A stretch of DNA of 64,000 nt from a virus (IMGVR_UViG_3300028837_001424:1-64000), one strand, 5' to 3'; positions 22,939-40,843 are shown, counted from the first letter of the stretch. The notes: a model not told the origin generated them from the sequence alone. Numbers and translations: made by a program.

Positions 22939-23682
22939 ATGGCGAATGAAAAAACATATACTGACGAAAGCCAATTACCGGATTTACCTCCAAACAAGTG
23001 CGGGAAAAGGAATAAGAGTTGTAGGCTTTGCCACTATCGATTTAAGCCTGGCGACAAGTCTTTAATATGCCCTGAGTGCGGAGCCGATCGACGTTGTAGA
23101 GCCGATAAAGTCAAAGGGTTTAAAACATGCAGGATGCACGGCGGTACTGGTGGGAGACCTCCAAAGCGTGTTTACACAGTCGTAAAAAAACTTGAGAAAG
23201 CCTATAACATAGCACTAGAACAAGCGGGCCATATAAGAACATTGGCCGAAGAACTTGCAGCTTTACGGGGAAGGAACGACCAGCTTTTTCGTAGACTTAA
23301 CAGGATTGAAGAAAGAGCGGCTGTCGCGATGGTGCGAAAAGGGCTTGAGAAGGCTCAGGGCGGTGCCTTATTTGGCGATATGAGTAGAGTATCAAAAGGC
23401 ATATCTTTGGCCATAGAGGGTATTACGCAATTGGAAATTGAAAATGAAACTTGGTTTGAATTACGGCTGAACACTGAGTTGATAAGAAAGATGGAAGACA
23501 CAATGCAGAAATGGGACATCGACAATCAGCAGATGATCAGTGCCCAAAACGTATTCGAAATTATAGTTCGCTTTTACGGATTGCTACTCAAGTATGTAAG
23601 AGACCCAACGGATCGACGTAATATATCATTTGAAATAAGGCAACTGTGTCCACCAGACCATGACCTCTATATTGGCTCCTGA
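22939..23682 (+). CDS. Putative terminase small subunit (HGGxSTG domain)
   Basis: CRMHGG motif; overlaps the TerL start. Confidence 0.65.
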   Translation: MANEKTYTDESQLPDLPPNKCGKRNKSCRLCHYRFKPGDKSLICPECGADRRCRADKVKGFKTCRMHGGTGGRPPKRVYTVVKKLEKAYNIALEQAGHIRTLAEELAALRGRNDQLFRRLNRIEERAAVAMVRKGLEKAQGGALFGDMSRVSKGISLAIEGITQLEIENETWFELRLNTELIRKMEDTMQKWDIDNQQMISAQNVFEIIVRFYGLLLKYVRDPTDRRNISFEIRQLCPPDHDLYIGS

Positions 23683-26281
23683 TGAATTTACGATAAAGAA
23701 TGGCGATCCTAGCTACGTCTGGGCTGCGTTAGCCGAAAAGCTGGTTCCTCAAGACATTGATGAGGAAGAAGAGCGCCGCCGAGAATATGCGCGCACGCAT
23801 ATGATAGGCTACACCCAATACACATTTCCAGGCTATATAACAGACCCATTTCATGAAGACGTATGTAACGCAATCGATCGAGTGGTTTTTGACGATCATC
23901 CGGACGGCCACATCAGCCATCTTATGCTATTTGCTCCACCTCAACATGGCAAACAGTGTGCCCATGAAACACCAATTCTAACTACTAAGGGTTGGAAAAT
24001 ACACGGCGATTTACAAATCGGCGATCACGTTTTTGGGCGATATGGTCAACCAGTTAAAGTTGTTGCTTTATCCAAAGATTCAATGGCCGATTTTGGAGTT
24101 GAATTTACTGACGGTGCTATTATCAAATGCCACAGTCGACACGAATGGATTGTATTTGAAAGGGGTGGCCACAGGTCAGTATATCGTTGTTTGGAGACAG
24201 GCGAAATTGAGGCGAATGGTGTATGGATGGGGGAGAGAAACACGCGTGGTGGTAGAGCAAGATACCAAATTGATGAAAATATTGCTATCGAATTTGAACA
24301 ACAAGATCTTCCGATACACCCGTATATTTTAGGCGTTTGGTTGGGCGACGGAACCAAAAATAAAAATTGCATTACGCACAGCCCTAAAGATTATAAGATA
24401 ATAGATAAGATTGAGAGATTAGGCATCGAACGAACTGCTTTCTCAATTCACCCTGAAACGGGCGTCTTTACAAGTTACTTTCGCCGACTTTATAAGTTAT
24501 TGAAAGAAAACGAATTGTTTGACAATAAAAACATACCTGAGATTTACAAATGTTCATCATTAGATCAACGAATAGAGCTTTTAGCGGGGCTAATAGATAC
24601 GGACGGATATATCTACCACAAAAATGGTAGGACCACTATCTCGACGGCTGATGAGCGATTGCGCGACGACATAGCTGATCTAATAAGAAGTTTGGGATGG
24701 CGAGCGACTATTGTTAGATATGAACCAACCACATCATCCTCCGGCATTGTTGGACGTAAGCCAGTTTATCAAATTAGCTTCAACCCAACACTGGATATAC
24801 CGTGTGCATTAGAACGCAAGCGCCCAAAAAAGCTAAATCCTAAAACTAAAAAACGAGGTATCAAAGCCATACGCCGATGTGATCCTGTGCCTGGTCGATG
24901 CATACAAGTTGAAGGCGGCATTTATTTAGTCGGCAAGACACTTATACCAACACATAATAGTGAAATAGTATCCACTCGCCTTCCTGGCTTTTGGTTGGCT
25001 CACCACCCAGAGCTTCCCGTAGCGCTAACATCATATAATCAGCGACTTGCCTATAGGAACAGCCGCCTTTCGAGAGCAGTTGTCGAAAGCCCAGCATATG
25101 ATCGGCTCTTCGGTGGTCCCGAATATGGTATTTTGCGCGATTTAGTAAATTGGAGGAAAAAGGATTGGCATATACTTGGTCATAAGGGATTCGTTTTTTC
25201 AACAGGTATTGAGGGAGATCTTACAGGAGAAGGATTTGGCCTTGGAATTATAGATGACCCCATTAAAGACTGGGCTGCTGCACAGTCAGAGGTGGTTAGA
25301 GAGAATGCTTGGGATTGGTGGAGAGGCACATATACAACCCGAATGTGGGAGCATCACAGAACAGTATTTATGATGACCAGATGGCACGAAGATGATCTAG
25401 CCGCGCGCATAATTGATTCGGAGGGGACTGTCGAGGAAGGGGGGAAGTGGGACATCTTGGCCTATTCGGCGTTAGCGGAAAGCCAGGATGAGCGCAACAA
25501 ATATGCCGAAGAGGCGGGCAGACCGAAGGGTTTGCCCGATCCTCTTGGCAGATTCCCGCTAGAGCCATTGGCTCCTAGTAGATATAGTGCCGAATACTTG
25601 CTTGACGTACGCGATAATGTTGGGTCGTTAGTTTGGGGAGCAGAATATCAACAGCATCCTACGCCGCCAAAGGGCGATTACTTCAAGGTTGGACGAATCA
25701 AGATAAAAGCGATGTATCCTATAGAATCTTTTGGGGGCGAATTGATAGATCGAGTTCCTGTTGGATTAAAAAAGTGTGTACGCTTCTGGGATTTGGCAGC
25801 AAGCGAAAAGAAAAAGGGTAAAGATCCTGACTATACATCAGGCACATTATTGGGGATAGATAGAGAGGGCTTTACATGGGTTTTGAATCAGATTAGCTTA
25901 CAGGCATCATCAGATCAAGTAGAGCAGGTAATACTCCAAACCGCGAATCTGGATGGCAAGAAGGTAAAAATCAGAATAGAGCAGGAGCCTGGCGCGGCTG
26001 GAAAGGCTCTTTGTGCTGCCTATGTTCGAAAGTTGGCTGGCTATGACGTTGAAGGAATTCCGTCAAGCGGTGATAAACAAACCAGAGCCTATAACTTTTC
26101 GGCACAGGTAAACGCGGGCAATGTAAGATTGCTTGATGCGTCTTGGAATAAAATATGGCTGGCCAGGCACCGTACATTCCCATTCGGCAAACACGATGAT
26201 GAGATTGATAGCACATCAGGTGCATTCAATGATCTTACGGGAGGAAAACGTTGGATAAGACAAACATTCAAACACTTGTAA
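23660..26281 (+). CDS. terL: Terminase large subunit, intein-containing
   Basis: Walker A PPQHGK|S; Walker B GIIDDPIKD; MTRWHEDDL; nuclease RFWDLA, DPDYT, EQEPG, HDDEID. Confidence 0.95.
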   Translation: MTSILAPDEFTIKNGDPSYVWAALAEKLVPQDIDEEEERRREYARTHMIGYTQYTFPGYITDPFHEDVCNAIDRVVFDDHPDGHISHLMLFAPPQHGKQCAHETPILTTKGWKIHGDLQIGDHVFGRYGQPVKVVALSKDSMADFGVEFTDGAIIKCHSRHEWIVFERGGHRSVYRCLETGEIEANGVWMGERNTRGGRARYQIDENIAIEFEQQDLPIHPYILGVWLGDGTKNKNCITHSPKDYKIIDKIERLGIERTAFSIHPETGVFTSYFRRLYKLLKENELFDNKNIPEIYKCSSLDQRIELLAGLIDTDGYIYHKNGRTTISTADERLRDDIADLIRSLGWRATIVRYEPTTSSSGIVGRKPVYQISFNPTLDIPCALERKRPKKLNPKTKKRGIKAIRRCDPVPGRCIQVEGGIYLVGKTLIPTHNSEIVSTRLPGFWLAHHPELPVALTSYNQRLAYRNSRLSRAVVESPAYDRLFGGPEYGILRDLVNWRKKDWHILGHKGFVFSTGIEGDLTGEGFGLGIIDDPIKDWAAAQSEVVRENAWDWWRGTYTTRMWEHHRTVFMMTRWHEDDLAARIIDSEGTVEEGGKWDILAYSALAESQDERNKYAEEAGRPKGLPDPLGRFPLEPLAPSRYSAEYLLDVRDNVGSLVWGAEYQQHPTPPKGDYFKVGRIKIKAMYPIESFGGELIDRVPVGLKKCVRFWDLAASEKKKGKDPDYTSGTLLGIDREGFTWVLNQISLQASSDQVEQVILQTANLDGKKVKIRIEQEPGAAGKALCAAYVRKLAGYDVEGIPSSGDKQTRAYNFSAQVNAGNVRLLDASWNKIWLARHRTFPFGKHDDEIDSTSGAFNDLTGGKRWIRQTFKHL
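23954..24958 (+). mobile_element. Class-3 intein (Gln1, WCT signature, 335 aa) with LAGLIDADG endonuclease, in TerL Walker A
   Basis: QCAHETPILTTKGW start; block B HEW; block F GRCIQV; block G PTHN|S; LGVWLGDG and LAGLIDTDG. Confidence 0.88.
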
Positions 26282-26347: not shown

Positions 26348-28876
26348 ATGGCTAAAACTAAGGCGTCCTCAAAGAGGCCGCGTCCTCAAGAACCGAGAGG
26401 ACAGCGGGCTATTCAGCTTGTTCCATACTTAAATCGGATTATACCGTTCTGGGGCCATCCAGGCTATCTCTCAGGAATGCAGTGGAGAACATTGGTTAAA
26501 AATCAGCCGTTGGCCATAATTTACCGCGACACATTAATTTCGAATACAATTTCGTTGGATTGGTCAGTAAGATTGCGCGAACCTGAGGAGGTTTCTCCTG
26601 ATAAAAGACTAAGGTATAAAGAGGAGATTGATTATTACACTGAGCTTTTCAATGAAATGGAAGGCGGCTTTGATAATTATATATCCTTAATTCTGCAAGA
26701 TATGCTTGACCTACCTTTTGGTGGGATGTCTGAAATAGGCCGCTTGGACGACGATCCTAAAAAGCGTGTCGTATGGGTACAACACGTTGATGCAGCTAGC
26801 TTAATTCCTACCGGTAATCCCGAATGGCCAGTGATGCAAGCTGTTCCTGGTCTACCTTCAAAACCAGTTGTATTTCCAAGACGTGCTGTAAACCGCTGTT
26901 ACATGAATCCTCGACCTGAAATCAAACGTAAGGGTTGGGGCATGGCCCCTCCTGAAAAAGTATACCTTGCGATTGAGATGCTTTATCGAGGCGACAGATA
27001 TTATGCAAATCTATTGCTTGATACGCCAGAGGCAGGCATTCTTGACTTGCTTGATATGGAAGAAGAAGACGCTAAAGATTGGATAGAAAGTGCGCGAGAA
27101 TTGTTTGGCGGTATTGGTGGCTGGAAAGTTCCCGTCTTATATGAACATGAAAAAGCGGCACAATGGATTCCATTCACACGCCCTCCTAGCGATATGCTGT
27201 ACGACGAAACCACCATGAAATATGCGCAGGTCTTAGCTGCAGGATATGGGCTTCGGTTAAGCGATATTGGAATGGCCGAGCTAAAGGGCGAAAAGACGCT
27301 GGCTGGCGTAATTAGAGGCGAGCGCCAGAGTAGACGTACAGGCTATGGTACAGTACGCAAGAAATTACGCAATCATTTAAATCGCATATTGCCCCCTCAC
27401 CTTATGCTTGTATGGGAAGAAAAGGACGAAGAAGCTAAGACAGAACAAGCCAGGGCATTATCAACTTATGGTCTTGCGTTAGGTCAACTGAAACGCGACG
27501 GTCTTTTATCTCCAGAGGAGGCACGTTCCGAGTTAGTATCAACGGGCTTATTGGAGGTCGAGATTGATCCTCAGGAAGTACCCGAACCTGAGATGCCGAT
27601 GGGAATGCCTGGTCATGGCATGTTTGAAAAGCCAGGCGAAAAGACTGATAAGCGGAAGCCCTTTGGTAAAACAACCGATGAAGACAGAGGACGTGTAAAG
27701 GACGAGGAGAAGGGCAAAGTCTCACCGACCAAGGGTGGTAGAGGCGGCTTAGGATCATTCTTAAAGCGACAATTTGGTAAGAGAGAGGCCGAAACCATTA
27801 AGCCTAAAATTGCACCAGATCAAGTTATAGAACGGATGAAACAAGTTGTTCAGCCTGGGATTGCAGCTATACCAGAAAAAGCCGAACCACCGAGACTTAG
27901 AAGGCTCATAAAAGTTATCACGCGTGCCATGGTTCCCATGCTACAAAAAACCTTTGGCGTTATTGATGATGATGCTATAGAGCGTGTTTGGCTGCCTGAG
28001 ATGCAGGCATTAGAATTTGATCTGCCCAGCGAACTTGACAGTCTAGTTATTCGACAAACCACTCAAGAATTGCGCGATATGCTAGACGAGCATCTTGATG
28101 ACGATCCGTGGTGGAAAACGGCTACAGCTTGGGAGAAGTCCGAGATCCTAGCCATATTCAGGGCGTCTTACGAAGCCGGTCTTGAGGATATGGCACTTAA
28201 TATGGTCCGAAGTCTTTATGAAGAAGGGCTTGCCTCAGTACCTACGCTAGCACCAACGATAGACTTTGATCTTGTAGATCATAAAGTTATTCGAGCATTG
28301 GAACATAAGGCCGCCGAAATGGTGACTCATGTAGATGAAGGAACTAAATATTTCCTAAAGCGCATTGTTGTGGCAGGCGTTCGGCGCGGTTTATCACGGC
28401 AGAAGATGGCCGCCGCAATTCGAGACGGGCAAAGTGCGGAGCGAATTCTACGTGATGAAGGCTTTATGGATGATGTGATTGATCAGATTATGAATGGTCT
28501 GATCGAGATGACTGAGAAGCGCGCAATGTCAATTGTGAATACCGAAGTAAAAGGCGCGCTTGTTGCTGGGCAATTAGAGCAAATCAAGCGTACTGGATTG
28601 ACAAAGAAAGGATGGCGGCACTTCGGCGAACGCGGAGTAACCGCGGCTGGCAACGTGCATCCTTGTCCAGTTTGTGTAAGAAATGAGGAGTTGGGTTTTG
28701 TGCCGTTTGAATATCTTTATGAGACGGTCTTCAAGCGTGGTGGCCCTCAGGGCGACGGAAAAGCTCCAGGCCCACCAGCACATCCTAATGTCTGCCACTG
28801 TTCCATTGTTTTCGACGAGGCTGAGCTATTCGCTACAGTCAAGAAGGGCGAGTTTGCACCCTGGCTTGGCGGATAA
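26348..28876 (+). CDS. Portal protein fused to a MuF/gp7-like head morphogenesis domain
   Basis: Lies after terL; portal-like GWGMAPPE region; C-terminal RAMSIVNTE...CPVC...PPAHPNVCHC MuF signature. Confidence 0.82.
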   Translation: MAKTKASSKRPRPQEPRGQRAIQLVPYLNRIIPFWGHPGYLSGMQWRTLVKNQPLAIIYRDTLISNTISLDWSVRLREPEEVSPDKRLRYKEEIDYYTELFNEMEGGFDNYISLILQDMLDLPFGGMSEIGRLDDDPKKRVVWVQHVDAASLIPTGNPEWPVMQAVPGLPSKPVVFPRRAVNRCYMNPRPEIKRKGWGMAPPEKVYLAIEMLYRGDRYYANLLLDTPEAGILDLLDMEEEDAKDWIESARELFGGIGGWKVPVLYEHEKAAQWIPFTRPPSDMLYDETTMKYAQVLAAGYGLRLSDIGMAELKGEKTLAGVIRGERQSRRTGYGTVRKKLRNHLNRILPPHLMLVWEEKDEEAKTEQARALSTYGLALGQLKRDGLLSPEEARSELVSTGLLEVEIDPQEVPEPEMPMGMPGHGMFEKPGEKTDKRKPFGKTTDEDRGRVKDEEKGKVSPTKGGRGGLGSFLKRQFGKREAETIKPKIAPDQVIERMKQVVQPGIAAIPEKAEPPRLRRLIKVITRAMVPMLQKTFGVIDDDAIERVWLPEMQALEFDLPSELDSLVIRQTTQELRDMLDEHLDDDPWWKTATAWEKSEILAIFRASYEAGLEDMALNMVRSLYEEGLASVPTLAPTIDFDLVDHKVIRALEHKAAEMVTHVDEGTKYFLKRIVVAGVRRGLSRQKMAAAIRDGQSAERILRDEGFMDDVIDQIMNGLIEMTEKRAMSIVNTEVKGALVAGQLEQIKRTGLTKKGWRHFGERGVTAAGNVHPCPVCVRNEELGFVPFEYLYETVFKRGGPQGDGKAPGPPAHPNVCHCSIVFDEAELFATVKKGEFAPWLGG

Positions 28877-29575: not shown

Positions 29576-29871
29576 AATGGATTGCCCTTGTAATCACCGG
29601 AAGGTTGGTTATCTGGGTACTCCAAACTAACGGCCTTACCAAACCGATATTGGAAAAACATCCTAAGCTCAAAGAGCTTGTAGGATGTGAGTTTTGCCTA
29701 GGCTGCTGGGTCTTTATGGCTTTATCGTGGGCATTAAAGGCTAATATCTTAGAGCCGGTTTATGTGCCTGGCCTTTGTGAATTTGTGACTGGAATCACAA
29801 TCTCATTTGCTGTGTACCTGGGCCGGCTCGGTTGGAATGACCGGTTTGGAGTAATCGAGTTTGACAACTAA
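29572..29871 (+). CDS. DUF1360-like membrane protein
   Basis: ELVGCEFCLGCWV with flanking TM segments. Confidence 0.55.
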   Translation: MKWIALVITGRLVIWVLQTNGLTKPILEKHPKLKELVGCEFCLGCWVFMALSWALKANILEPVYVPGLCEFVTGITISFAVYLGRLGWNDRFGVIEFDN

Positions 29872-32011
29872 CCTAATAGTTCCTGATCTTGAGAAAAAAC
29901 TAGTCGATATGTTGACTAGGGATTACCCCGCGCCTCACTGTGGGAATCCTGGGGAAATTGGGGGCTCAAAACCGCGTGAAGAGTGCGATGGTGGTAAACG
30001 TATAGCAGAAGTTACCCATCGATACTCTATGATGTTTCCAGGCATGAAGGGCGAGATCATAAAAGAATGGACTGATCCAAACGATAATAAATGGTATCGT
30101 TTAGATTTCGGAGAAAATCAAACTGGCCAAAGATTAAGATCTAATATTCCCGCTAATTCAGCAAGGGTTATTGAAGAAGATCCAGAAAAAGAGTTATCAT
30201 ACGTCTTGGAAGAAATCGATGCAATTACGGACATAGGCCAAAAGCGTTTTGATGAAGCCAAGGATGAGACCATAAAGATGTTACATCCTGCAGGAATTGA
30301 TTGGCTTGAGCGGGATGAATTAGATAGACTTCAAGCTTTGCTAATGAAGCTGCCTGCCCTAGAGCATGAGATCATGGGAAGCCCACAAGAGCGCGTACGC
30401 ATTAAAAGACAGTTACGTAAGCTTGGTATCGAATTTGATCCAAAAGCACCGCTAAGCGATTTGGCGGAAGCTTTGGGGGCTACTCAGAGGTTCATTTTCC
30501 GTGATTATCCTGGTGACGGTCACCTTATTACTCGCGAAGACCTTCTAAGCATTCTGCGTGGCGACCTCCTGTTAAAAGGGGAACTACGCAGAGTAGTCAG
30601 CCTGGAAAATGGACCATTCCTCATAACTGCCGATTATCCTGATCCGCATTGTGGCCTTGAGGGAACACATGGCGGCTCGCGCTCGCGTGAAGAATGCGCT
30701 ACTAATACCGAAGGGCTTGATATTAGGCCTGGGAAGTTTGCGGCAGAGGGGAAGTGGGCGGTCTTCGAAGAAGACAAGATGGCCACCAACTATCATGACA
30801 CGCAAGAAGAGGCTGCGGAAGAATATCATCGCTCTAAAAAGATGAAAAAGACTGGTCAAGCAGCCGCGGATAAACGCAAGGAACTTATTTCCATAATGAT
30901 CGACGCTGGTAGTTTCACAGAAGAACAGCTTATGGAATTCACTGGTGGACACAAAGAGAAAACCCATAAATACGCCTGGGCTGATATTCAAGATTTAGGA
31001 TTGCGATGGACCGATGCGAAGAATGTATTGGAAAAGATCAAGCCAATTGGTCTTAGCGAAGGCGGCTATCGAATCTATGACATGGAAAGGGTTATACAAG
31101 AAGCACTTGACTTTATGGGTGTTGTTGAGCGAGCAGTTGTTGAGCGCAAAGGATTACTTGCTAGTGTCCGTCGCTCACTTGAGAACTTGGTTGAAAAAGT
31201 ATTATCGGTAGCTAGAGTCGGCGAAGGGCCAGGATACCACGATCCTCACGTTGGATTGCCTGGTGTCCATGGGGGATCTCGCCCTAGGGGCGAAGGCGAG
31301 GCTGCACCGATCTATACCGAACCAGGCCAACAGCAAGCGAATGTGCTTGAGAGTCTACCAGAGGATTTAAAGAAGGTTATCAAAGCTGGTAAATTCGATG
31401 AGGAAACCACTCGTCGTATTCTAGAAAGCTCAGAAAAAAGCATCGAACAAGCAAGCGAGCAGGAAACGCGCACCAGTCCGATGATACAAAGATTGGCACA
31501 GCAGACCGGTGCGCAAATCGAGGGATTTGATTATAGGATAAAAGGGAGAGATTCATTAGCTCGCAAGATTGCAACCGACATGGTTGAAAAGAATCTAAGT
31601 CTGGAAGAGGCCACATCTGATGTTTATGATGCCGTGCGCTATACCATGGTTTTTGATAACGAGGAATTTGCAGATAGAGTAGGCGGTGTCCAGGATAGTT
31701 TACAAGAACAAGGTTGGAGTCAATATGATCTAGCGTGGAAAAACTACTTTCCGGCTGGCGACAATTATGATGGTTACAATACGGTTATGGAAAACCCCGA
31801 TACTGGAGAACGCTTTGAGCTTCAATTTCATACGCCCGAAACATGGCAGCACAAAATGGACACACATGGTCTCTATGAGGAATTGCGAGTTCTTCCGAGG
31901 GATAGTACACGTAGGCTTGAGGTTTGGAATCAAATGGTAGAGGGTGCCGCCGCAATAACAAGACCAGATGGCTGGGATAGATTAAGGGGCCAGCAGGTAA
32001 TAAGGCAATGA
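29861..32011 (+). CDS. Modular effector polyprotein with C-terminal Apk2-like RelA/SpoT (SAS) toxin domain
   Basis: Three tag repeats; C-terminal YRIKGRDSLARKI...DAVRYT...YDGYNT...FELQFHT...HGLYE. Confidence 0.8.
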   Translation: MTTNLIVPDLEKKLVDMLTRDYPAPHCGNPGEIGGSKPREECDGGKRIAEVTHRYSMMFPGMKGEIIKEWTDPNDNKWYRLDFGENQTGQRLRSNIPANSARVIEEDPEKELSYVLEEIDAITDIGQKRFDEAKDETIKMLHPAGIDWLERDELDRLQALLMKLPALEHEIMGSPQERVRIKRQLRKLGIEFDPKAPLSDLAEALGATQRFIFRDYPGDGHLITREDLLSILRGDLLLKGELRRVVSLENGPFLITADYPDPHCGLEGTHGGSRSREECATNTEGLDIRPGKFAAEGKWAVFEEDKMATNYHDTQEEAAEEYHRSKKMKKTGQAAADKRKELISIMIDAGSFTEEQLMEFTGGHKEKTHKYAWADIQDLGLRWTDAKNVLEKIKPIGLSEGGYRIYDMERVIQEALDFMGVVERAVVERKGLLASVRRSLENLVEKVLSVARVGEGPGYHDPHVGLPGVHGGSRPRGEGEAAPIYTEPGQQQANVLESLPEDLKKVIKAGKFDEETTRRILESSEKSIEQASEQETRTSPMIQRLAQQTGAQIEGFDYRIKGRDSLARKIATDMVEKNLSLEEATSDVYDAVRYTMVFDNEEFADRVGGVQDSLQEQGWSQYDLAWKNYFPAGDNYDGYNTVMENPDTGERFELQFHTPETWQHKMDTHGLYEELRVLPRDSTRRLEVWNQMVEGAAAITRPDGWDRLRGQQVIRQ

Positions 32012-33702
32012 GATACTTTGTCAGGATCAGGGATAATCCAAAGGCAAATAACTATATGCAGCTACTCTCGTTGCATCGTTTAGGTAAGCGCGGGAATATT
32101 CTCATTACCGAGCGTTGGGATCGAAACAAGAAAAACTGGGTTGATAATCTAAGTATGCTTTATCGTTTCAGCGGCATGGGTGGCGCAAATGATTTTAGAG
32201 AGATCGTAGAGCCTGAGGCTACTGCTTTGATCAAACAATGGTCCAAACCACCTACGATTAAAAGGCCCAAAGACAAAAGACGATGGGAAGATCGGCGTGC
32301 TAAGGAGTTTGAAAATGCAAAAGAAGAACAGCACAAATTAGCGCATCACGTTACTGGTCCTGCTAGTGTAGGACCAACATCATCCTATATTCAAAGTAGT
32401 GTTGTTGGCGCGCTTAGGAGAGTTGTTGAATTACAACCTCTTTATATCAATCTTCCAATAGACGAATCGCAGATTGAATTAAACAAACAACAAGCATTAG
32501 GCAAGCTTGATCCTACGGTGAAGTTGGAACCTGTTGACTTTGATAAACTACACATCACTTTAATATGGTCAGAAAACTGCTCTGACCAAGCTGTTATTCA
32601 AAGCATAAAAGAAGTTTCATGGCCAATGTCATTCAGTGTGCGGGTTAGTCGGTTGGAGGTACTGCAGTCTGATGATGGCTTGACATTAGTTTGGGCTGTT
32701 GATCCAGATCCCGCCCTTGTTAGGCTACAGACCGAGCTTTATAATGCCTTCAAAAATAACAACATAGGCCTTAGCGAGTACTCTGATCAACAGGTTTACA
32801 AACCGCATATTTCAATAGCATATAACTTAAGCCACATGCCATACGAATTACCATCGATAGAGCCATTTAAAATATCAATAGATAGAGTCAGGGTGACCCG
32901 CAAAGATTATCGCGAAACCATGTCAATTGATCTTGTTGGGAGAGACTATCCAGACCCTCATTGCGGATTAGCGGGCGAGCACGGAGGCTCTCGCCCGCGG
33001 GATGAGTGCGCACCCAAGGACGATGAGGGAAAACCAATATCGCGTATTGAGGCTACAAGTGATGCTCAACTTGACTCGGCAATAGAATCTGTTATGGATA
33101 CGTGGCACGATTATGAAGGAGCAAGGATTGCGCTAAGTTGCTTACACGAAGAAATTGCCGAAGAGGGCATAGGGGAAACCCATATATGGAAACGCGACGA
33201 TGATTTAATGGGCGTTATGAGTATTTCACAAGACGCAGCACCATTTACAATTGAGCAATTATCTTCGCTGGATGCCCCTGGACTTGAGGGCGATAAACTT
33301 ACTCAGGTTTTGTATATTGCAAGCAAAGAGCGAGGCATAGGGACAAGGATGATGCAATATGCGGTTGATATTGCAGCCGATAGAGGACATGGTTTATGGG
33401 TTTATTCTGAGCCGGAAGCCATGGGCTTCTACGAAAAGATTGGAATGAAAAGCGCTGTTGATTCTAATACAGGAGCGCCAACCAGATTTTATTACTTCAC
33501 AGACGAGGATGTTAAATCATTATCTTTGCCAACCGTCAAGAAAGCCTTACCCGAAGTCAAGCCTGAAGACGAGCCAGAAAGCGGTGCCTTCGCGTCGCCG
33601 CCTCCTAAAATTGATTCATCAAAAAAGGCCGAATCTAAGGTAGCCAAAAAAGAACGACGTAAGAAAAGCAAAAAGAAACGTAAACGAAAGGCGCGTAAGT
33701 GA
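32008..33702 (+). CDS. Polyprotein: IapK-like immunity domain + 2H phosphoesterase + tag + GNAT + basic tail
   Basis: N-terminal RYF..L.RL..ERWD..KKNWVD..DFREI.E.EA; HITL and HISI 2H motifs; RGIGTRMM...AMGFYEKIGM; KKERRKKSKKKRKRKARK. Confidence 0.75.
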   Translation: MRYFVRIRDNPKANNYMQLLSLHRLGKRGNILITERWDRNKKNWVDNLSMLYRFSGMGGANDFREIVEPEATALIKQWSKPPTIKRPKDKRRWEDRRAKEFENAKEEQHKLAHHVTGPASVGPTSSYIQSSVVGALRRVVELQPLYINLPIDESQIELNKQQALGKLDPTVKLEPVDFDKLHITLIWSENCSDQAVIQSIKEVSWPMSFSVRVSRLEVLQSDDGLTLVWAVDPDPALVRLQTELYNAFKNNNIGLSEYSDQQVYKPHISIAYNLSHMPYELPSIEPFKISIDRVRVTRKDYRETMSIDLVGRDYPDPHCGLAGEHGGSRPRDECAPKDDEGKPISRIEATSDAQLDSAIESVMDTWHDYEGARIALSCLHEEIAEEGIGETHIWKRDDDLMGVMSISQDAAPFTIEQLSSLDAPGLEGDKLTQVLYIASKERGIGTRMMQYAVDIAADRGHGLWVYSEPEAMGFYEKIGMKSAVDSNTGAPTRFYYFTDEDVKSLSLPTVKKALPEVKPEDEPESGAFASPPPKIDSSKKAESKVAKKERRKKSKKKRKRKARK

Positions 33703-33721: not shown

Positions 33722-34669
33722 ATGACCAAAATAGATGTTATGTTGAGCGTGTGGAAGCCTTGGAGCTTAGCACTGCCACCAAACAATATATCAATAAAAG
33801 ATCAGGTGAACACCGCCAAAGCTCTTGATGTGCGCGCCATAGCAATAAAGGGGACCAACCGCAATGTTATTTATGGTGCGAAGGAAAAAATGGCATGGCC
33901 ATACAACAAATACAGCAATGATCACATCGAGATCGAGGCCAAGGCACAAGGGCTTGAAGTGGATCTGTGGTGTTGGGTCGACTGCCGGCATCCTGCTATT
34001 CAAGCCGAAGCAGTAAAACAGGCGGTCGCCAGATGGAACCCACGCAACGTATTTATTGATTGTGAAGGCGGGATAGCCAAAACCTATGCTTACAACACAG
34101 GGGCCTTCCTGAGAAGCCTAGGGCGGCTTTATAGGCACAATGGCGAGGAGATAAAGGTTTGGCTACAGTCATATCGTCGGCCAATGTTGCACCCAGAAAT
34201 AGCTTGGCATAAATGGCTTACTTATGTTGGCCAAGATGGGCAATATCTGCTCGAAGGCATATCGCCACAAGCTTACTATGTGGGGACACAGGATAGCGTA
34301 AGTGACTACGCGGGCATGTTATCGGAATACGAAAAGATGGAAGCTAGGATTGGTCGAGTCTTGAATTGGCATGTAACCCTACCTGCGTATTACGAACACG
34401 GTTGGCAGCCTACCGCTGACAGTCTTGAGGCTGGTATTGATTTCCTTAGAGACGAATTAGAAGATCGATTGGTCGGTGTTAATTTCTTCCGACTAGGATG
34501 GTTGATGAACGATAAACTACTCGATGTTTGGTCAATGCTTCTTGGCTATGATTGGGGAGAGGAAGAGGAGCCAGAACCCGAACCGACGCCATTTGAACAG
34601 CGCCCCGAACCTGAACGATGGGTCATTGTGGGTGACGATTTTAGATCACGAGGCGTAATAAGTGACTAA
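33722..34669 (+). CDS. Putative glycoside hydrolase-like (TIM-barrel) protein, possible muralytic enzyme
   Basis: AKALDVRAIAIK...WCW...FIDCE...PQAYY pattern resembling GH25-like phage lysins. Confidence 0.45.
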   Translation: MTKIDVMLSVWKPWSLALPPNNISIKDQVNTAKALDVRAIAIKGTNRNVIYGAKEKMAWPYNKYSNDHIEIEAKAQGLEVDLWCWVDCRHPAIQAEAVKQAVARWNPRNVFIDCEGGIAKTYAYNTGAFLRSLGRLYRHNGEEIKVWLQSYRRPMLHPEIAWHKWLTYVGQDGQYLLEGISPQAYYVGTQDSVSDYAGMLSEYEKMEARIGRVLNWHVTLPAYYEHGWQPTADSLEAGIDFLRDELEDRLVGVNFFRLGWLMNDKLLDVWSMLLGYDWGEEEEPEPEPTPFEQRPEPERWVIVGDDFRSRGVISD

Positions 34670-34723: not shown

Positions 34724-35695
34724 GTGTTGAAAATACCTTATTTAGTGAAAATGGTTGTATCTGTGGAAATAAAGAAAGTTGTAATGGGGCCAATGAGAAG
34801 AGTGATTAAACAGAATGAGACTATGCCTATTGTTGTAGGTCTTCTTAGACGCGTTTTTACAAAAACCAAGCAGCTAAACTCCTTAGATTTGCCAGAATTT
34901 ATGGAGCGCGTTGGTAAAGGACCAGGATATCACGACCCTCATTGTGGGCCTCCTCCAGGCGTACATGGTGGCTCAAGACCGCGCGATGAATGTGCTGGGG
35001 AGGTGTCTGTTGAGACTGGCGAACAAATGGTTCAACCATCAATACAAGGGCCACGCGATTTCGGCGAGAATGTTCCAATAGGGGCAAAGTGGATGCCCAG
35101 AAGAGAATATCGGGCAATACAGGAACAGATAGAACATAACGCCATGGATTGGGGTGAGGAAAACTTTGATGAGTTTGTAGAATCGCTATCCGATGAAGAA
35201 ATTTTGGCAATGAGTTCTTATAGAGTACAAGCCTATGATCCCATCAATGATTATTTACGGAAAGGCAAACTCGATCCATACGCAATATATACAGAGGAAG
35301 AGGTTAGGGAATTAATACCCATGATCGAAGGCGTTTTGGATAAAACACAAATTCCTGAGGAAGTATATGCCTATAGAGCGATGCGGATGCCCGAATTTAA
35401 AGATCCAAAAGAGATGATAGGTGAGACATTTACTGATTTCGGCTTTGCCTCGACCACAATGGTGCCGCACATGACTCACGTTTGGATGGAACAACCATCC
35501 GAAACGCCCAGATTCGTTGCTAAGATTAGGATACCTCAAGGTACAAATGCGGCATATATCAGCCATATAACCCATAAAGATCAAAATTATTATCCCGAAG
35601 AGACCGAAATACTATTGCAACGCAATACTAGGTTTAGAATTTTGGGATTAAATAATGACGGGTCAATAGATATGGAGGTTATTGGTGAGGAATGA
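34724..35695 (+). CDS. Tag + VIP2-like ADP-ribosyltransferase (start uncertain, 34724-34823)
   Basis: INDYLRKG; AYR; DFGFASTT; IRIPQGT.AAYI; EETEILLQRNTRFRI (R-S-ExE). Confidence 0.85.
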   Translation: MLKIPYLVKMVVSVEIKKVVMGPMRRVIKQNETMPIVVGLLRRVFTKTKQLNSLDLPEFMERVGKGPGYHDPHCGPPPGVHGGSRPRDECAGEVSVETGEQMVQPSIQGPRDFGENVPIGAKWMPRREYRAIQEQIEHNAMDWGEENFDEFVESLSDEEILAMSSYRVQAYDPINDYLRKGKLDPYAIYTEEEVRELIPMIEGVLDKTQIPEEVYAYRAMRMPEFKDPKEMIGETFTDFGFASTTMVPHMTHVWMEQPSETPRFVAKIRIPQGTNAAYISHITHKDQNYYPEETEILLQRNTRFRILGLNNDGSIDMEVIGEE

Positions 35696-35873
35696 AATAG
35701 GCAAATTCACCTGGGACTTCGGCCTAGACCAAGACCAAGGCATAATGTTTGATAGTCAAAAGGCTAGTTTGAAGGAAGATAAACTAGCTCCTTGGGATGC
35801 CCAAGTAATATCACGCGCGGTTCAAGAAGTTGTTGATTCATTAGCGAACTTGCTTGGTATCGAAAAGAAATAA
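35682..35873 (+). CDS. Small protein coupled to the ART gene
   Basis: GGAGG RBS; overlaps the ART stop. Confidence 0.45.
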   Translation: MVRNEIGKFTWDFGLDQDQGIMFDSQKASLKEDKLAPWDAQVISRAVQEVVDSLANLLGIEKK

Positions 35874-35912: not shown

Positions 35913-35950
35913 ATGAGGCGACCCTTTTAGTGGGTCGCCTCATATTTGTT
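35913..35950 (+). terminator. Intrinsic terminator
   Basis: ATGAGGCGACCC/GGGTCGCCTCAT 12-bp stem followed by a T-rich tail. Confidence 0.7.
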
Positions 35951-36026: not shown

Positions 36027-37004
36027 ATGCCTATAGGGATTGGCGATGCCCCAGGCACTTTGCCTAGCCATGCGAAGGATATATACGTCTCGGCCTTCAA
36101 TAATTCTTACGAAACGACTTGTAAGAAAAGGAAAGATCGAGACGCGTGCGCGGCAAAGATAGCCTGGTCGGCTGTCAAAAACAAATATAAGAAGGGTGGA
36201 GAAGGCAAGAAATGGGTTGCCAAGAGCTTTAATGAACTCGAAGTTGATGTTGGCAATATTCCTTTGCCCGGTTCTTTATACGAGTCACCCTACCATGCTG
36301 CCCAAAATTGGATTGATGCTTATGGCTCATGCATTATCGCGGAAAAATCTATTGGAGAATCCGCCAGTGACGCGTGGGCTGTTTTGAAGACGCATTACGA
36401 GTGTGATAGTCAGGGACTATGGCAGATCAAGGACGGACAAATGATTGAGCGAGCTTCACTAAACCCCGAAGAGGAAATTGTGGAAGCCCCAGAGGATGCG
36501 AAAGCCGAGCTTGTCATCGTTCGTTCTGAAATCGGCGGCGGATCTTGGCGTACAGAAGGCGGTCCCATTATCGTTGATGGTTTGACACCTGAACAGGAAC
36601 AAGCCCTTGTAGATAAATATTGCAATGAAATAGCTGCAAGGCCCGAAGGTTTTCCTGGAATGGCTTGGGCATCATTAGCTCTCAAGCATAAAACGGTTTG
36701 CAAAGCGATTCATCTTAAGCGCAGATCGAGAGCTTATATGTGCGCAGTCGAGCGCGAACAAAAGCGAGGATGGACTACTTATCTTAACCCATTGAATCCG
36801 AGCGAATATATCTTTAGCGGATGGAAAGTTGAGCCGGACAAAGCGCAAACCCTACAACGAACAGTGCTTGTTCGATCCATTACGGATGACGGCACTAAAT
36901 GTGAACATTGGCTGCTTGGTGATCCGCTCAACTTTGCATCGGCTACCATACAACGCGACGTTGGCCCTGATTATGCTCGATTCAGAGGTCCACTTTTGAA
37001 ATGA
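36027..37004 (+). CDS. ChaB-domain protein (two ChaB-like repeats)
   Basis: LPSHAKDIYVSAFN...AKIAWSAVKNKYKK; second copy HAAQNWIDAY...AWAVLKTHY; GGGAGG RBS. Confidence 0.75.
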   Translation: MPIGIGDAPGTLPSHAKDIYVSAFNNSYETTCKKRKDRDACAAKIAWSAVKNKYKKGGEGKKWVAKSFNELEVDVGNIPLPGSLYESPYHAAQNWIDAYGSCIIAEKSIGESASDAWAVLKTHYECDSQGLWQIKDGQMIERASLNPEEEIVEAPEDAKAELVIVRSEIGGGSWRTEGGPIIVDGLTPEQEQALVDKYCNEIAARPEGFPGMAWASLALKHKTVCKAIHLKRRSRAYMCAVEREQKRGWTTYLNPLNPSEYIFSGWKVEPDKAQTLQRTVLVRSITDDGTKCEHWLLGDPLNFASATIQRDVGPDYARFRGPLLK

Positions 37005-37828
37005 CGCCAATTGATGCTGGTGGAAGCGGCAACACTGGCCATACCACGGCGAGAGGCAAGAAAAGGATTAAGCTTACGCCTGGTGAGGCTGGTTACCGCG
37101 AAGGAATGGGTATACCAGAACTGCGATGCGGAGATTGTGTTTTTTATGTGAATGGTTTGTGTGAGAAAGTTGCAATTAAACCAGACGCCGATGATGTTTG
37201 TAATGAATTTGAGCCTGCCTTACAGAGGGGAAACCTAAGTTCAAATTCTCCAGGAGTGGGTTCGGATTTTGCTACACTAAGAGGTTTGTTAGTGCCAGAC
37301 TTATTGAAATCTAAAGCTAAATGGGAAACGATGGGCCGCAAGGGAGGGCCCAAAGCCGCTGGGCCAGATGGCGAGTGTGTTTGTCCAGAATGCGGATATA
37401 AAACCAAACATGTGGCTGGCGAACCGTGTGAAGATAAAGAATGCCCTAAGTGCAAAACCCCTATGGTAAGAAAAGGTCTTATTGTAAAAGGTGGTTCACG
37501 ATCAGGATATCATGATCCGCACTATGGCAGAGTTGGGCAGATTGGAGGATCAAGAACAAGGAAAAGTCAGATAAATAAACTTCGGGAAGTTGCTATTGGT
37601 TGGCGAAGCATTGTATTGGGATCAATGCATCATAAGATTACTCGCACCGTTGGCCAAGGCAGGCACGAGGCGATTATCAGGAAGACTAGTGAAGGATGGG
37701 ATCTGTCAAGACAAACATACGATTATTGGGGAACACCAATGGGGCGGTCAGGCGTTAGTCATCATGATGAATTAATAGCGGCAATGGCTTCTGGCAATGA
37801 TTGGATTGAGAGAAAAGCAAATGACTGA
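37001..37828 (+). CDS. Modular protein: Cys-cluster domain + Zn ribbon + tag + unknown domain
   Basis: CGDC..C..C (HiPIP-like spacing); CVCPECG..C..CPKC; YHDPHYG..GGS. Confidence 0.65.
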   Translation: MTPIDAGGSGNTGHTTARGKKRIKLTPGEAGYREGMGIPELRCGDCVFYVNGLCEKVAIKPDADDVCNEFEPALQRGNLSSNSPGVGSDFATLRGLLVPDLLKSKAKWETMGRKGGPKAAGPDGECVCPECGYKTKHVAGEPCEDKECPKCKTPMVRKGLIVKGGSRSGYHDPHYGRVGQIGGSRTRKSQINKLREVAIGWRSIVLGSMHHKITRTVGQGRHEAIIRKTSEGWDLSRQTYDYWGTPMGRSGVSHHDELIAAMASGNDWIERKAND

Positions 37829-39425
37829 AAAACAATTGCTTCAAGAACAAGCAGTCGGCATGGAATTAATTATCACGAAAGTTGCCAAAGATAAGCAGAC
37901 TGGCGAAAAGCGCTGGTTTGCACGAGCAAGTGGCGTTGAGCGAGACTTATTTGATGAGAGGATGTCGAAAGAATTGTTTGATGACTTCATCCGACGTGCA
38001 GAAGCCAAAGAATCTGTACCAGAACCATTCTCAAGCAAAGCCTGGAACGGCGGATTGCCATATCTAGGAGTTGCCCATTATCTTGATCTGGAAGGTGAAG
38101 GTATAGCAGGACCTACGACTCAAATCTATACAGATGGCGATTATTTCAAGTCAAAGGGCACATTTGAGAATAGCGAATTAGGAGACCTTTGTTATGACGC
38201 CATCAAGAAAGACATAGAAGATGATATTCCGCACGACCAACGAATACGAATTTCGATTGCGTTTATTGACTGGGGACACGATCACGAAGGACATGGTGTA
38301 TTTAGGCGCGAATCTCTTATGGATCGATGTGAACTATGTGGAAAAGGCATAGGAGAGAAGATTTATAAGGCCGGCCACCTTGTTCATCTGGCACTAACAA
38401 GAAGGCCAGCTTACCCCCAAGCTACTATAGAACTGGAGGAACGATCCATGAATAAGAGACGTGATGATGCCGCTTCCATTGTGGGGGATGATAAAGCTGA
38501 CGAGCTTGAAGCAAAATCCCTAGAAATGCTTCTAGTTGGCAAGACTGAAGGAATTGACCCAAATGCAGTAATCATCAAGGCTGACGAGGAAACGGGTGAA
38601 GAGAGCGCCGAGGAAGCCCCCTATGGTGGGGCTGAAACACTTGACGAAGCCGAAGCGTATCTTGTCCAAAAAGCAACCGAGCCAATCTTGATGAATTCCT
38701 GGGGCGTCTTACAAGGCGTTCTAACTAACATAGCGGGTCGGGATCATGGGCCAGCAATAGCTGAGCAGTTAAAGGCGTTTCAAACAACGCTTGATGTGCA
38801 AGCTCTTGAGGCTCTAAAATCCATGACCCACAGGGAGGTAGTTATGCCCGAAGTAGCAAAAGAAGTTATCGTTGAGAGGCAGCCGCCCTTTGTTGGTGAG
38901 GAAGAGTTAGCTGAGGAAGAAGGGTTAACGACTGGAACCGTTGAAGAGGTAGAAGAGGAAGAGGAAGTTGCCTTCCGATCCACCTCTGAAATGGCCGAGC
39001 CACACCCCTTGGATGAATCTTTCTTGGCACTACGTACCGCCTATGATGAGGCGCTGGAGACCCCTGTAGACCGCTCCTCGCGGCTTCAGATGATTCAGCC
39101 CGCTATAAATGCCGTAGGCGACGCCATCCTAGCCAATATTGAGGCAGTACCCGCGGAAGGCGCTGTTTCAAAGGACATTATTAAGCGAGCCATTGAAGAG
39201 GCTGTCGCACCCCTTCGGGCTGAACTTGAGGCGCTAAGAGTAAAGTCCTTATCAGATTCAACACCTCCGCCCCAAGTGCCAGTACCACGGCACATCGTCG
39301 CTCCAGCACGCGTTGTTAACCAGACGCCTGAAAAACTCATTGTTCGTGACATTGAAGAGGCTAAGGTAGACAACCCAACACCAAAACTGCGTGCAATAGT
39401 GCGCAAATCAGTAGGAATACGGTAA
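37821..39425 (+). CDS. Putative prohead protease/scaffold protein
   Basis: Directly upstream of MCP; ASGVERDLFDERMS, H, SI, HLALTRRPAY protease-like motifs; acidic helical C-terminus. Confidence 0.7.
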   Translation: MTEKQLLQEQAVGMELIITKVAKDKQTGEKRWFARASGVERDLFDERMSKELFDDFIRRAEAKESVPEPFSSKAWNGGLPYLGVAHYLDLEGEGIAGPTTQIYTDGDYFKSKGTFENSELGDLCYDAIKKDIEDDIPHDQRIRISIAFIDWGHDHEGHGVFRRESLMDRCELCGKGIGEKIYKAGHLVHLALTRRPAYPQATIELEERSMNKRRDDAASIVGDDKADELEAKSLEMLLVGKTEGIDPNAVIIKADEETGEESAEEAPYGGAETLDEAEAYLVQKATEPILMNSWGVLQGVLTNIAGRDHGPAIAEQLKAFQTTLDVQALEALKSMTHREVVMPEVAKEVIVERQPPFVGEEELAEEEGLTTGTVEEVEEEEEVAFRSTSEMAEPHPLDESFLALRTAYDEALETPVDRSSRLQMIQPAINAVGDAILANIEAVPAEGAVSKDIIKRAIEEAVAPLRAELEALRVKSLSDSTPPPQVPVPRHIVAPARVVNQTPEKLIVRDIEEAKVDNPTPKLRAIVRKSVGIR

Positions 39426-39524
39426 TAACCCTGCTTGCTATGTGTGCTACTGAGTAAGGCGATCTATCAGTAGCGTTAAGCACGGCGAGAGTAAGAAAAA
39501 GAAAAAGTTTCTGGAGGAAACGTC

Positions 39525-40730
39525 ATGACAGAACAAATAGTTCCCGATATCACTGGCGAGCGGGTTATCAATCCTTCGACTGGCGAAGTCTTTGTTTCAA
39601 AAGCCACCGATCCTGTTATCCTGCCTCAGCCATACGCAACACCTGGCACGTTCTCGGCTCAGTACCCTACTCCACTTGACCCAACCGAGATCATTGCATT
39701 GTGCGAGGAAGTCTCACTTTGGCAAGCATTACCTGAGGAGTTTACATCTTTGAAGGCGTATACTTGGCGCGAAATGGATGCCATCCAGATGATCTCTGGT
39801 TCCACCGCCGCATCAACGTATTTGTTCTTCGCTGATGGTGAGTGTCCTGAGGAGTACGAGCACGAAGGGGACAATTTTACAGTGAATTTAAAAAATATAG
39901 GCGCGAAGAAAAGCCTCAGCATTTCGGACATAATGCACTCGGCGGCTGTGGCTGGAGCTAACTGGCATGGAATTAACCGCCTTGTTGGCGGGTTCCCTGC
40001 AAGTGAAGGCGCGCCAGGCGGAACCGATGCTGCAACGTTTAGCCAAGAACGTGTTTCCGATCTAAAAGAGAAGGAAATTCGAATCGGAATGACATCAGTG
40101 CTGAACGGATGGGACAAATATCTTGTGATTGGCAATAGCGCTGCGCCAGGCGGATTGCAGTTTGATGGACTTGACAATTACGACGCAAACATGGGTGGAA
40201 CTTGCACCTTCCATACAAACGCTGCCGGTGCCCACACTGGAATCTTCACCGCCATTGGCTTTGACCGCTGGTTATCCGAAAGTTGTGCAAAACCAACGCA
40301 CCTTTTTGGGCATCCACAAAGTATGCAAGAGTTGATGTCTGCTTACTTCCAGCTTGGTTACCAGGGAAGTCAGGTGGTCAATTTTTCAAGCGGTGATCGG
40401 ATTGTCCCAGGATTTAACTTTGCCGGTTACGTCAATACTGGTGTTGGCCGATTAGCAGTAACTTCGGACAACAACTTCACTAACGCGACCTATAATGATG
40501 ATATTCAAGGGGAGATTTATGCCCTACGAATGAATCAGAACGGCGAACCGTTGGTGTATAAGCTAACCCAGATTCCGCTTGCTCTTAAAGATCTTACCCC
40601 TGGTTGTACTGCAATCAGTTTTGAGATTTGGTGCAAAACCGCGCTTGTTGTAAAAGCGTGCTGCGCCCAGGGTCGTTATACAGCCCTATTCTCAGGCCGA
40701 GTTCAAGCAACTTGTTCAACCATCGGATAA
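39525..40730 (+). CDS. Major capsid protein
   Basis: Position, 401 aa, GNS...QFDGL motif, strong RBS, downstream hairpin. Confidence 0.75.
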   Translation: MTEQIVPDITGERVINPSTGEVFVSKATDPVILPQPYATPGTFSAQYPTPLDPTEIIALCEEVSLWQALPEEFTSLKAYTWREMDAIQMISGSTAASTYLFFADGECPEEYEHEGDNFTVNLKNIGAKKSLSISDIMHSAAVAGANWHGINRLVGGFPASEGAPGGTDAATFSQERVSDLKEKEIRIGMTSVLNGWDKYLVIGNSAAPGGLQFDGLDNYDANMGGTCTFHTNAAGAHTGIFTAIGFDRWLSESCAKPTHLFGHPQSMQELMSAYFQLGYQGSQVVNFSSGDRIVPGFNFAGYVNTGVGRLAVTSDNNFTNATYNDDIQGEIYALRMNQNGEPLVYKLTQIPLALKDLTPGCTAISFEIWCKTALVVKACCAQGRYTALFSGRVQATCSTIG

Positions 40731-40754
40731 TCTGAGTAGTCGGGAAAATCAAAA

Positions 40755-40791
40755 AGGAGCCGGCGCGGGCCTAACGGACCTGTCGGCTCCT
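40755..40791 (+). terminator. Hairpin after MCP (terminator or stabiliser)
   Basis: AGGAGCCGGC/GTCGGCTCCT stem. Confidence 0.5.
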
Positions 40792-40843
40792 CATACGAAA
40801 TTATAGATTTAATCTTTGAATTTAATAATTCAGGGAGGTTCTA

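Follow-up and report, generated by a model that had tools for sequence, protein, structure and literature searches.

The locus described here raises the question of what a toxin-type alarmone synthetase, followed directly by a domain resembling its antidote, is doing at the junction of two multi-module proteins in the head region of a large phage. The locus lies in the stretch of DNA analysed in this study (64,000 nucleotides, hereafter the window), which represents the first 64 kb of IMGVR_UViG_3300028837_001424, a 112,591-bp IMG/VR record of an uncultured virus that is rated complete by CheckV. Two overlapping open reading frames (ORFs) are involved, i.e., ORF 29861-32011, which encodes a 716-aa protein ending in the synthetase domain, and ORF 32008-33702, which encodes a 564-aa protein opening with a domain, here termed the N-domain, that resembles the IapK immunity proteins. 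The answer favoured here, to which we assign a probability of roughly 0.7, is that the two ORFs specify a toxin/immunity pair of the Apk2-IapK type that has been transplanted into tag-delimited polyvalent head proteins, the inhibitor serving to silence the toxin and the toxin being delivered by the virion.

The presence of RelA/SpoT domains in phage polyvalent proteins and in MuF fusions was described in 2017 (PMC5512222), while the Apk2-IapK-Aph1 system was characterised between 2023 and 2025 (PMC10083569, PMC12226406). Apk2-IapK-Aph1 modules of MuF toxins have been reported from temperate phages of S. pneumoniae, M. haemolytica, P. multocida and Bacteroides caccae, with Aph1 being variably present in the published loci (PMC12226406, PMC10083569). 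A sequence-only reading of the window had proposed that an Apk2-like toxin domain and an IapK-like domain succeed one another across positions 31390-32240. The motifs which that reading quoted for both domains were all found at the indicated place in the two ORFs, although the extent proved slightly too wide, the synthetase occupying residues ~524-714 of its protein (31430-32002) and the N-domain residues 1-78 of the next (32008-32241).

The synthetase module and its clade

The 716-aa protein ends in a domain that contains the motifs YRIKGRDSLARK, DAVRYT, YDGYNT, FELQFHT and HGLYEE, and that is classified as a RelA/SpoT-type small alarmone synthetase of the toxin class (toxSAS) within the Apk2/SaEAS clade (~31430..32008, plus strand). 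This classification draws on a structural database match, on phages encoding Apk2 and on a family-specific hidden Markov model (HMM), the last of which spans residues 524-714 at 2.8e-78. A sequence search of the PDB returned a sole significant match (E=9e-25), to entry 8VX3, representing SaEAS, an alarmone synthetase that Streptomyces albidoflavus exports (PMC12691689). The deposited 8VX3 chain carries the substitutions L83M and D121A, which correspond by alignment count to a Met at chain position 48 and an Ala at position 86, and this count along the chain places the inactivating D121A opposite the Asp of DAVRYT in the window protein. All fifteen invariant columns of an alignment of 33 homologues are retained in the window protein (K62, K70, D91, R94, T96, G119, Y137, G139, N141, G150, E154, Q156, H158, Y173 and P203, as numbered in a 217-aa segment), with D91, i.e., the Asp of DAVRYT, aligning with D121 of SaEAS.

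The Apk2-like character that had been proposed for this domain is borne out by its homology to characterised Apk2 toxin domains. A tblastn comparison of the synthetase with GenBank phages returned 128 records, among them phages of S. pneumoniae, Mannheimia and Pasteurella with 29-33% identity and E values of 1e-18 to 3e-23; the Apk2 toxins of prophages from these three hosts have been characterised (PMC12226406). In four phage records that were examined, the match falls at the C-terminal end of a MuF protein, behind which an ORF of 68-72 aa and one for an HD phosphohydrolase succeed one another, an order identical to the published apk2-iapK-aph1 arrangement. Three PHROG families, built of the C-termini of MuF and minor-head proteins, also recognise the synthetase domain, and no match to Pfam RelA_SpoT was obtained at E<=0.01.

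In a collection of 5.8 billion proteins, homologues of the synthetase were found on MuF, portal, PAAR, WXG100 or ADP-ribosyltransferase (ART) carriers, or in tag-delimited polyproteins, and such a variety of carriers is the pattern expected of a polymorphic-toxin domain. The synthetase HMM gave one significant match in the six-frame translation of the window, at the coordinates of the synthetase itself. Judged by its sequence, the domain is an intact member of the polymorphic-toxin synthetase clade.

The N-domain and its linkage to the synthetase

The ORF that follows starts within the end of the synthetase ORF, the two sharing an ATGA stop/start overlap (32008..32011, plus strand) that had been noticed in the sequence-only reading; an AAGG sequence is located 3 nt upstream of the ATG at 32008, and the overlap probably couples translation of both ORFs. 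The N-domain corresponds to residues 1-78 of the 564-aa product (32008..32241, plus strand), displays the motif series MRYF..LHRL..ERWD..KKNWVD..DFREIVEPEATALI, and is listed as an IapK/Tis1-like immunity-type domain on the strength of a family search, an IapK profile match and an AlphaFold2 (AF2) model.

A search with residues 1-85 against 1.8 billion representative proteins retrieved 72 matches at E<=1e-3, i.e., the query's own protein (P0045), one spurious match (P0110) and 70 other family clusters. The domain stands alone, as a protein of 77-130 aa, in 34 clusters; it heads a longer protein (187-1,040 aa) in 27 of the 70, and in a further six it is contained within one chain, behind a synthetase. 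The layout observed in the window, which had been considered unusual, is indeed so when set against the characterised systems, yet it recurs in the 27 clusters just mentioned.

To relate this family to IapK, a profile of the 34 stand-alone N-domain proteins (A1) was aligned with a profile of the IapK ORFs from the four annotated phages and their close homologues (A2). The two profiles aligned by hhalign from end to end over 67 columns with 95.5% probability (E=1.5e-8), while A1 matched single IapK sequences of S. pneumoniae and Mannheimia at ~80% probability (E~1e-5). An HMM of IapK alone, derived from A2, gave one match in the six-frame translation of the window, located at the N-domain (E=0.0033), and the N-domain HMM likewise returned a single significant match there, at the same domain. 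The suggestion that an IapK-like domain heads the ORF directly behind the synthetase is thus upheld by a remote but significant profile match, and it is concluded from these comparisons that the N-domain is a diverged member of the IapK family, for which binding of the synthetase is predicted.

Several other searches returned nothing for the N-domain. No family was assigned by Pfam to the 34 stand-alone members, no match was found by tblastn among 50,697 GenBank phages, and Foldseek of the N-domain against the PDB gave no match at E<=0.001. The AF2 model itself shows a small beta-sheet and two helices at a predicted local distance difference test score (pLDDT) of 90.7. Kelch-repeat matches in the PDB, obtained with the N-domain sequence and profile, were rejected as spurious as they are caused by the ERWD..K.W hairpin motif, and the P0110 match was discarded as the same artefact. 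The nearest named cluster in the ESM Atlas is Tis1_ImmP, at a score of only 0.76, and is regarded as a lead rather than as evidence.

The association of the N-domain with the synthetase was subsequently assessed across relatives. The six representative proteins that contain both domains in one chain, with the N-domain 10-22 aa behind a homologous synthetase, were retrieved with the N-domain alone as query, and therefore constitute independent 'Rosetta-stone' evidence of a functional link. For one natural fusion (P0076, 323 aa), AF2 predicted the two domains with pLDDT values of ~95 and ~90, joined by a disordered linker (~50 disordered residues), at a predicted TM-score of 0.64, a model that speaks neither for nor against docking of the two. 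A groundwater contig of 116.7 kb (L087) encodes, in one open frame under translation table 11, four tags, a synthetase, an N-domain and another tag, the tags being copies of the short motif described in the next section; in a 118.3-kb contig from the same sampling site (L095), the junction is split. Both contigs are close in length to the genome of the phage studied here.

Among 80 IMG/VR synthetase loci, 39 yielded a match to the N-domain or IapK HMM, and in 38 of these 39 the match begins no more than 300 nt downstream of the synthetase, followed in nine loci by an Aph1-like hydrolase. Several loci match both HMMs, by which the two families are bridged. In seven further metagenome loci, the ORF directly behind the synthetase encodes the N-domain. 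L007, the closest relative, whose synthetase is 45% identical, exhibits the same layout as the window, the synthetase ending one tag-polyprotein and the N-domain starting the next at the stop codon, with a tag 10 residues past the N-domain. As the N-domain is often followed at short distance by a tag in this family, the ancestral unit looks like tag, synthetase, N-domain, tag, and it looks, from these sequences, as if a gene boundary separates toxin and antidote in some cases and is missing in others. In a tree of 71 N-domain sequences, resolution was too low for a count of fusions and fissions, with 22 changes as compared to 26.3 for shuffled labels and only two changes forced by well-supported branches. 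Single-protein scans of IMG/VR with the synthetase domain, the N-domain or P0076 returned no matches.

Eleven other viral loci (L033, L036, L039, L042, L056, L069, L070, L073, L076, L078 and L081) encode a synthetase followed by 350-1,200 in-frame residues without a match to either the N-domain or IapK; these additional residues may represent a different immunity or cargo module.

Head-region setting and the tagged modules

Nearly all long ORFs of the window are located on the plus strand. The gene for the large terminase (23660-26281) is followed by that for an 842-aa portal-MuF fusion (26348..28876, plus strand), identified by PHROG matches to portal family phrog_2662 (2.7e-15) and, over residues 570-761, to head-morphogenesis/MuF family phrog_2468 (3.9e-12), and possessing an HPNVCHC motif near its C-terminus. 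The 716-aa head-module polyprotein comes next (29861..32011, plus strand) and was resolved by ORF and tag searches into three tags, two unassigned modules and the C-terminal synthetase. Its residues 1-499 match no Pfam family above cut-off, its PHROG matches are confined to residues 503-703, and neither Pfam nor PHROG detects MuF or Phage_Mu_F in it, in line with the earlier statement that the toxin is not fused to MuF. In this phage, MuF carries the portal and not the toxin.

Promoter-like sites in this region are no more frequent than in shuffled controls, and downstream of the portal gene a strong terminator, with a 12-bp stem, is first met at 35913-35943, for which reasons the block has the appearance of a single late transcription unit. 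Neither an integrase nor a resolvase was detected in the whole 112.6-kb record, and searches of the same record with HD_4 (PF13328) and the Aph1 protein of an S. pneumoniae phage as queries did not identify an Aph1/HD hydrolase. In the five large ORFs downstream (37001-45314), Pfam and PHROG searches identified neither a prohead protease nor a major capsid protein; this phage possesses highly divergent head proteins.

The modules of this region are delimited by a tag of ~22 aa, DYPDPHCG..G.HGGSRPR.EC and variants thereof, of which a six-frame search with the regular expression [DG]Y[PH].PH.G..G.[HI]GGS.[PST]R... identified six copies in four ORFs between 29861 and 37828, and none elsewhere in the window (29921-29986, 30632-30697, 31232-31297, 32944-33009, 34925-34993 and 37505-37570). 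The third copy (GYHDPHVGLPGVHGGSRPRGEG; 31232..31297, plus strand) is situated directly upstream of the synthetase module. The two Cys residues of the tag occur together in four copies and are missing together from the other two; their joint loss points to a disulfide or a pair of metal ligands. The same tag delimits modules in distant homologues, and the modules found behind tags include synthetase, GNAT and ADP-ribosyltransferase domains.

As the sequence-only reading had stated, the immunity-type domain is not a stand-alone protein: in the 564-aa protein it is succeeded by a 2H phosphoesterase of the LigT/Acb1-like type (32485..32883, plus strand; Pfam 2_5_RNA_ligase2, 1e-8; PHROG 755), by a tag (DYPDPHCGLAGEHGGSRPRDEC; 32944..33009, plus strand) and by a GNAT module with a K/R-rich C-terminal tail (33166..33702, plus strand; Pfam Acetyltransf_1, 5.5e-5, residues 387-480). 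Both in the window and in the relative P0064, the 2H phosphoesterase separates the N-domain from the following tag. Its score against the Pfam Acb1 (anti-CBASS) model was 5.8e-6, at 26.5 bits, which is below the 27-bit cut-off. The 2H domain was also considered as an enzymatic antidote replacing Aph1, since it occupies the aph1 position in both the window and P0064; however, it is found far from the synthetase in P0051, P0061 and L007 and is LigT/Acb1-like by score, and this improbable candidate was set aside.

Downstream of the 2H-GNAT gene, a 315-aa ORF (33722-34669) without a tag and without a Pfam or PHROG match precedes the ART gene. The latter, in the block 34724-35873, encodes a tagged ADP-ribosyltransferase (Pfam ADPrib_exo_Tox, 2.9e-27), and is followed by an overlapping 63-aa ORF without an assigned family and then by the terminator. 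This 63-aa ORF could encode the antidote of a second toxin/antidote pair in the block.

A candidate mechanism and its alternatives

According to the favoured reading, the last ~195 residues of the 716-aa protein would constitute an active toxin-type nucleotide 3'-pyrophosphokinase of the Apk2/SaEAS clade, as predicted from sequence. The N-domain would bind this enzyme and occlude its acceptor site, by analogy with IapK and Tis1, and would thereby keep it silent in the producing cell while it accumulates late in infection, after which the tagged synthetase module would be taken up into the capsid and passed on to the next host cell. The silencing step is proposed by homology to proteins of proven function, as IapK and BcTis1 neutralise Apk2 by direct binding (PMC12226406, PMC10083569). 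The delivery step is inferred from gene position, from the shared tag and from the delivery domains that carry the toxin elsewhere, and the occurrence of one tag on synthetase, ADP-ribosyltransferase and GNAT modules makes capsid loading the most likely route.

A number of observations weigh against this reading. The homology to IapK is remote, with 25% identity in the profile alignment. In a structural scan of the N-domain model, Tis1 (6OX6_B) ranked fifth of 48,161 chains with a weak Z of 3.6 and a root-mean-square deviation of 3.5 A over 61 of 76 residues, tied with unrelated chains, and nothing in the scan exceeded a Z of 4.7. A search of the genome with the Pfam model Tis1_ImmP (PF24154) gave no match at E<=10; this model likewise fails on characterised IapK proteins, and thus does not define IapK. 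Capsid loading is argued from gene position and the shared tag, and neither a prohead protease nor a major capsid protein was recognised downstream. Finally, a toxin and inhibitor in a single, permanently cis-inhibited chain would be useless, and some release step is therefore necessary. One such step is contained in a variant, somewhat unlikely in our estimation, in which the inhibitor is virion cargo as well and the pair enters the capsid in an inhibited state, as one chain or as a non-covalent complex borne by the tagged polyproteins, to be parted by head maturation cleavage or by unfolding during ejection. A timed switch for alarmone synthesis, as envisaged when the locus was first read, is a possible function of the locus.

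The single-chain proteins also bear on the role of the N-domain, which might be a partner of the synthetase other than an inhibitor: it could assist folding or loading as a chaperone, attach the enzyme to the inner side of the capsid as an adaptor, or act as a subunit that activates the enzyme or sets its specificity. A role of this kind would explain why fusion in the same chain is tolerated, natural synthetase/N-domain fusions being hard to square with a simple stoichiometric inhibitor, and the tag usually found right behind the N-domain gives the latter the appearance of a part of the cargo module. We nevertheless regard such a role as unlikely, given the homology of the N-domain to IapK, whose binding and neutralising activity has been demonstrated in three systems (PMC12226406), and given that CapRel-like fused toxin-antitoxin synthetases demonstrate the viability of cis-inhibitors (background cited in PMC12691689). 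A different view of the fusions is that the split junction of the window is itself bypassed, a -1 frameshift at ATGA yielding one polyprotein of ~1,280 aa similar to the fused relatives. ORF 32008 does lie in the -1 frame relative to ORF 29861, and the junction is in frame in P0051, P0061 and L087; against this, the junction (GGTAATAAGGCAATGAG) does not include a slippery heptamer, ORF 32008 has a proper ATG preceded by AAGG, and the split junction is the majority state, being observed in 38 of 38 IMG/VR loci and in seven of eight metagenome loci. Frameshifting is on these grounds exceedingly improbable.

The place and the target of the enzyme's action are open to similar scrutiny. Instead of being virion cargo, the synthetase could act in the producing cell late in infection, in host metabolic shutdown or lysis timing, with the N-domain functioning as a rheostat, a proposal which accords with the location of the genes in one late-type unit extending from the portal gene to the terminator, and with the absence of a detectable integrase or resolvase, which makes it unlikely that the toxin serves here in lysogen competition, as has been proposed for the MuF toxins found in temperate phages. 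This proposal is nonetheless distinctly unlikely: the synthetase gene sits between the portal-MuF gene and the remaining head region, its tag is shared with ART and GNAT modules, which are of types found in packaged effectors, T4 Alt being one example (PMC5512222), and homologous domains are fused to the delivery domains MuF, portal, PAAR and WXG100. With respect to the substrate, members of the clade differ in product, Apk2 making (p)ppApp only, SaEAS both G and A alarmones, and VpEAS and AaEAS (p)ppGpp only (PMC12691689), while syn-motif swaps left the specificity of Apk2 unchanged (PMC12226406), so that the product cannot be called from sequence. The same unreadability of the motifs leaves room for an enzyme that pyrophosphorylates tRNA 3' ends, as do CapRel, PhRel and FaRel2, in place of free purine nucleotides. 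This is judged very improbable, as sequence comparison led to no solved structure other than SaEAS, the characterised enzymes nearest to this domain, Apk2 and SaEAS, use free nucleotides (PMC12691689), and the PDB search did not return any chain of a tRNA-modifying toxSAS, even at E<=10. The reading retained is that of an Apk2-IapK-type pair housed in polyvalent head proteins.

Comparison with known systems and significance

The system most similar to that of the window is Apk2-IapK-Aph1, with which it shares a homologous synthetase, a homologous inhibitor-type domain right after it, and the location of both near portal and MuF genes in the head-morphogenesis region. It differs in that the toxin ends a tag-delimited polyprotein rather than a MuF fusion, in that the IapK-like domain opens a 564-aa protein whereas IapK is a protein of ~70 aa (the family format being stand-alone, at ~70-90 aa), and in that neither an Aph1/HD hydrolase nor an integrase was found in the 112.6-kb genome. 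The lack of a toxin-MuF fusion, of an Aph1 hydrolase and of an integrase sets the protein apart from Apk2 in the strict sense.

SaEAS provides the best and only significant match of solved structure and possesses the same catalytic Asp, but is a Sec-exported, stand-alone enzyme without an immunity protein (PMC12691689). The Tas1 (Apk1)-Tis1 pair of P. aeruginosa (6OX6) is built alike, the active site of its synthetase toxin being blocked by a small immunity protein; Tas1 is, however, delivered by a PAAR domain and a type VI system and not by a phage head, and neither domain of the window yielded a sequence-level match to Tas1 or Tis1. As in CapRel, the synthetase and the presumed inhibitor are held in one chain in the relatives P0051, P0061, P0076 and L087, although the inhibitor domain of CapRel is unrelated to the N-domain. 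CapRel is a host defence protein acting on tRNA, while the window protein is a phage virion-region protein. Phage polyvalent proteins, for their part, are multi-effector proteins of the virion region with RelA/SpoT, 2H, ART and GNAT domains that are thought to be injected with the DNA (PMC5512222), and the locus resembles them in this respect; a toxin-specific immunity-type module distinguishes it, the term 'immunity protein' occurring zero times in PMC5512222.

Phage alarmone synthetase toxins (Apk2) have been known only as MuF fusions of temperate phages with a separate small antidote gene, and their role during infection is an open question (PMC10083569, PMC12226406). What is new here is the state of the antidote, which either stands at the start of another effector polyprotein or forms one chain with the toxin, in a large phage without a sign of lysogeny and without the hydrolase. 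The same toxin/antidote pair is thus found built into tag-delimited multi-effector polyproteins, and in large phages that are apparently not temperate, and the antidote can be a polyprotein module. The locus further supplies ~70 clusters of a previously unnamed immunity-type family, which no Pfam model matched in these searches. If the inhibitor were indeed packaged together with the toxin, the next host would receive a single, self-limiting burst of alarmone, accompanied by the 2H and GNAT modules to which the inhibitor is joined; this would amount to a built-in toxin switch timed by proteolysis or ejection, for which no counterpart among phage effectors has been described. The locus in this way offers a handle on two questions, namely whether such toxins are in fact delivered by virions and how an inhibitor-bound toxin is released.

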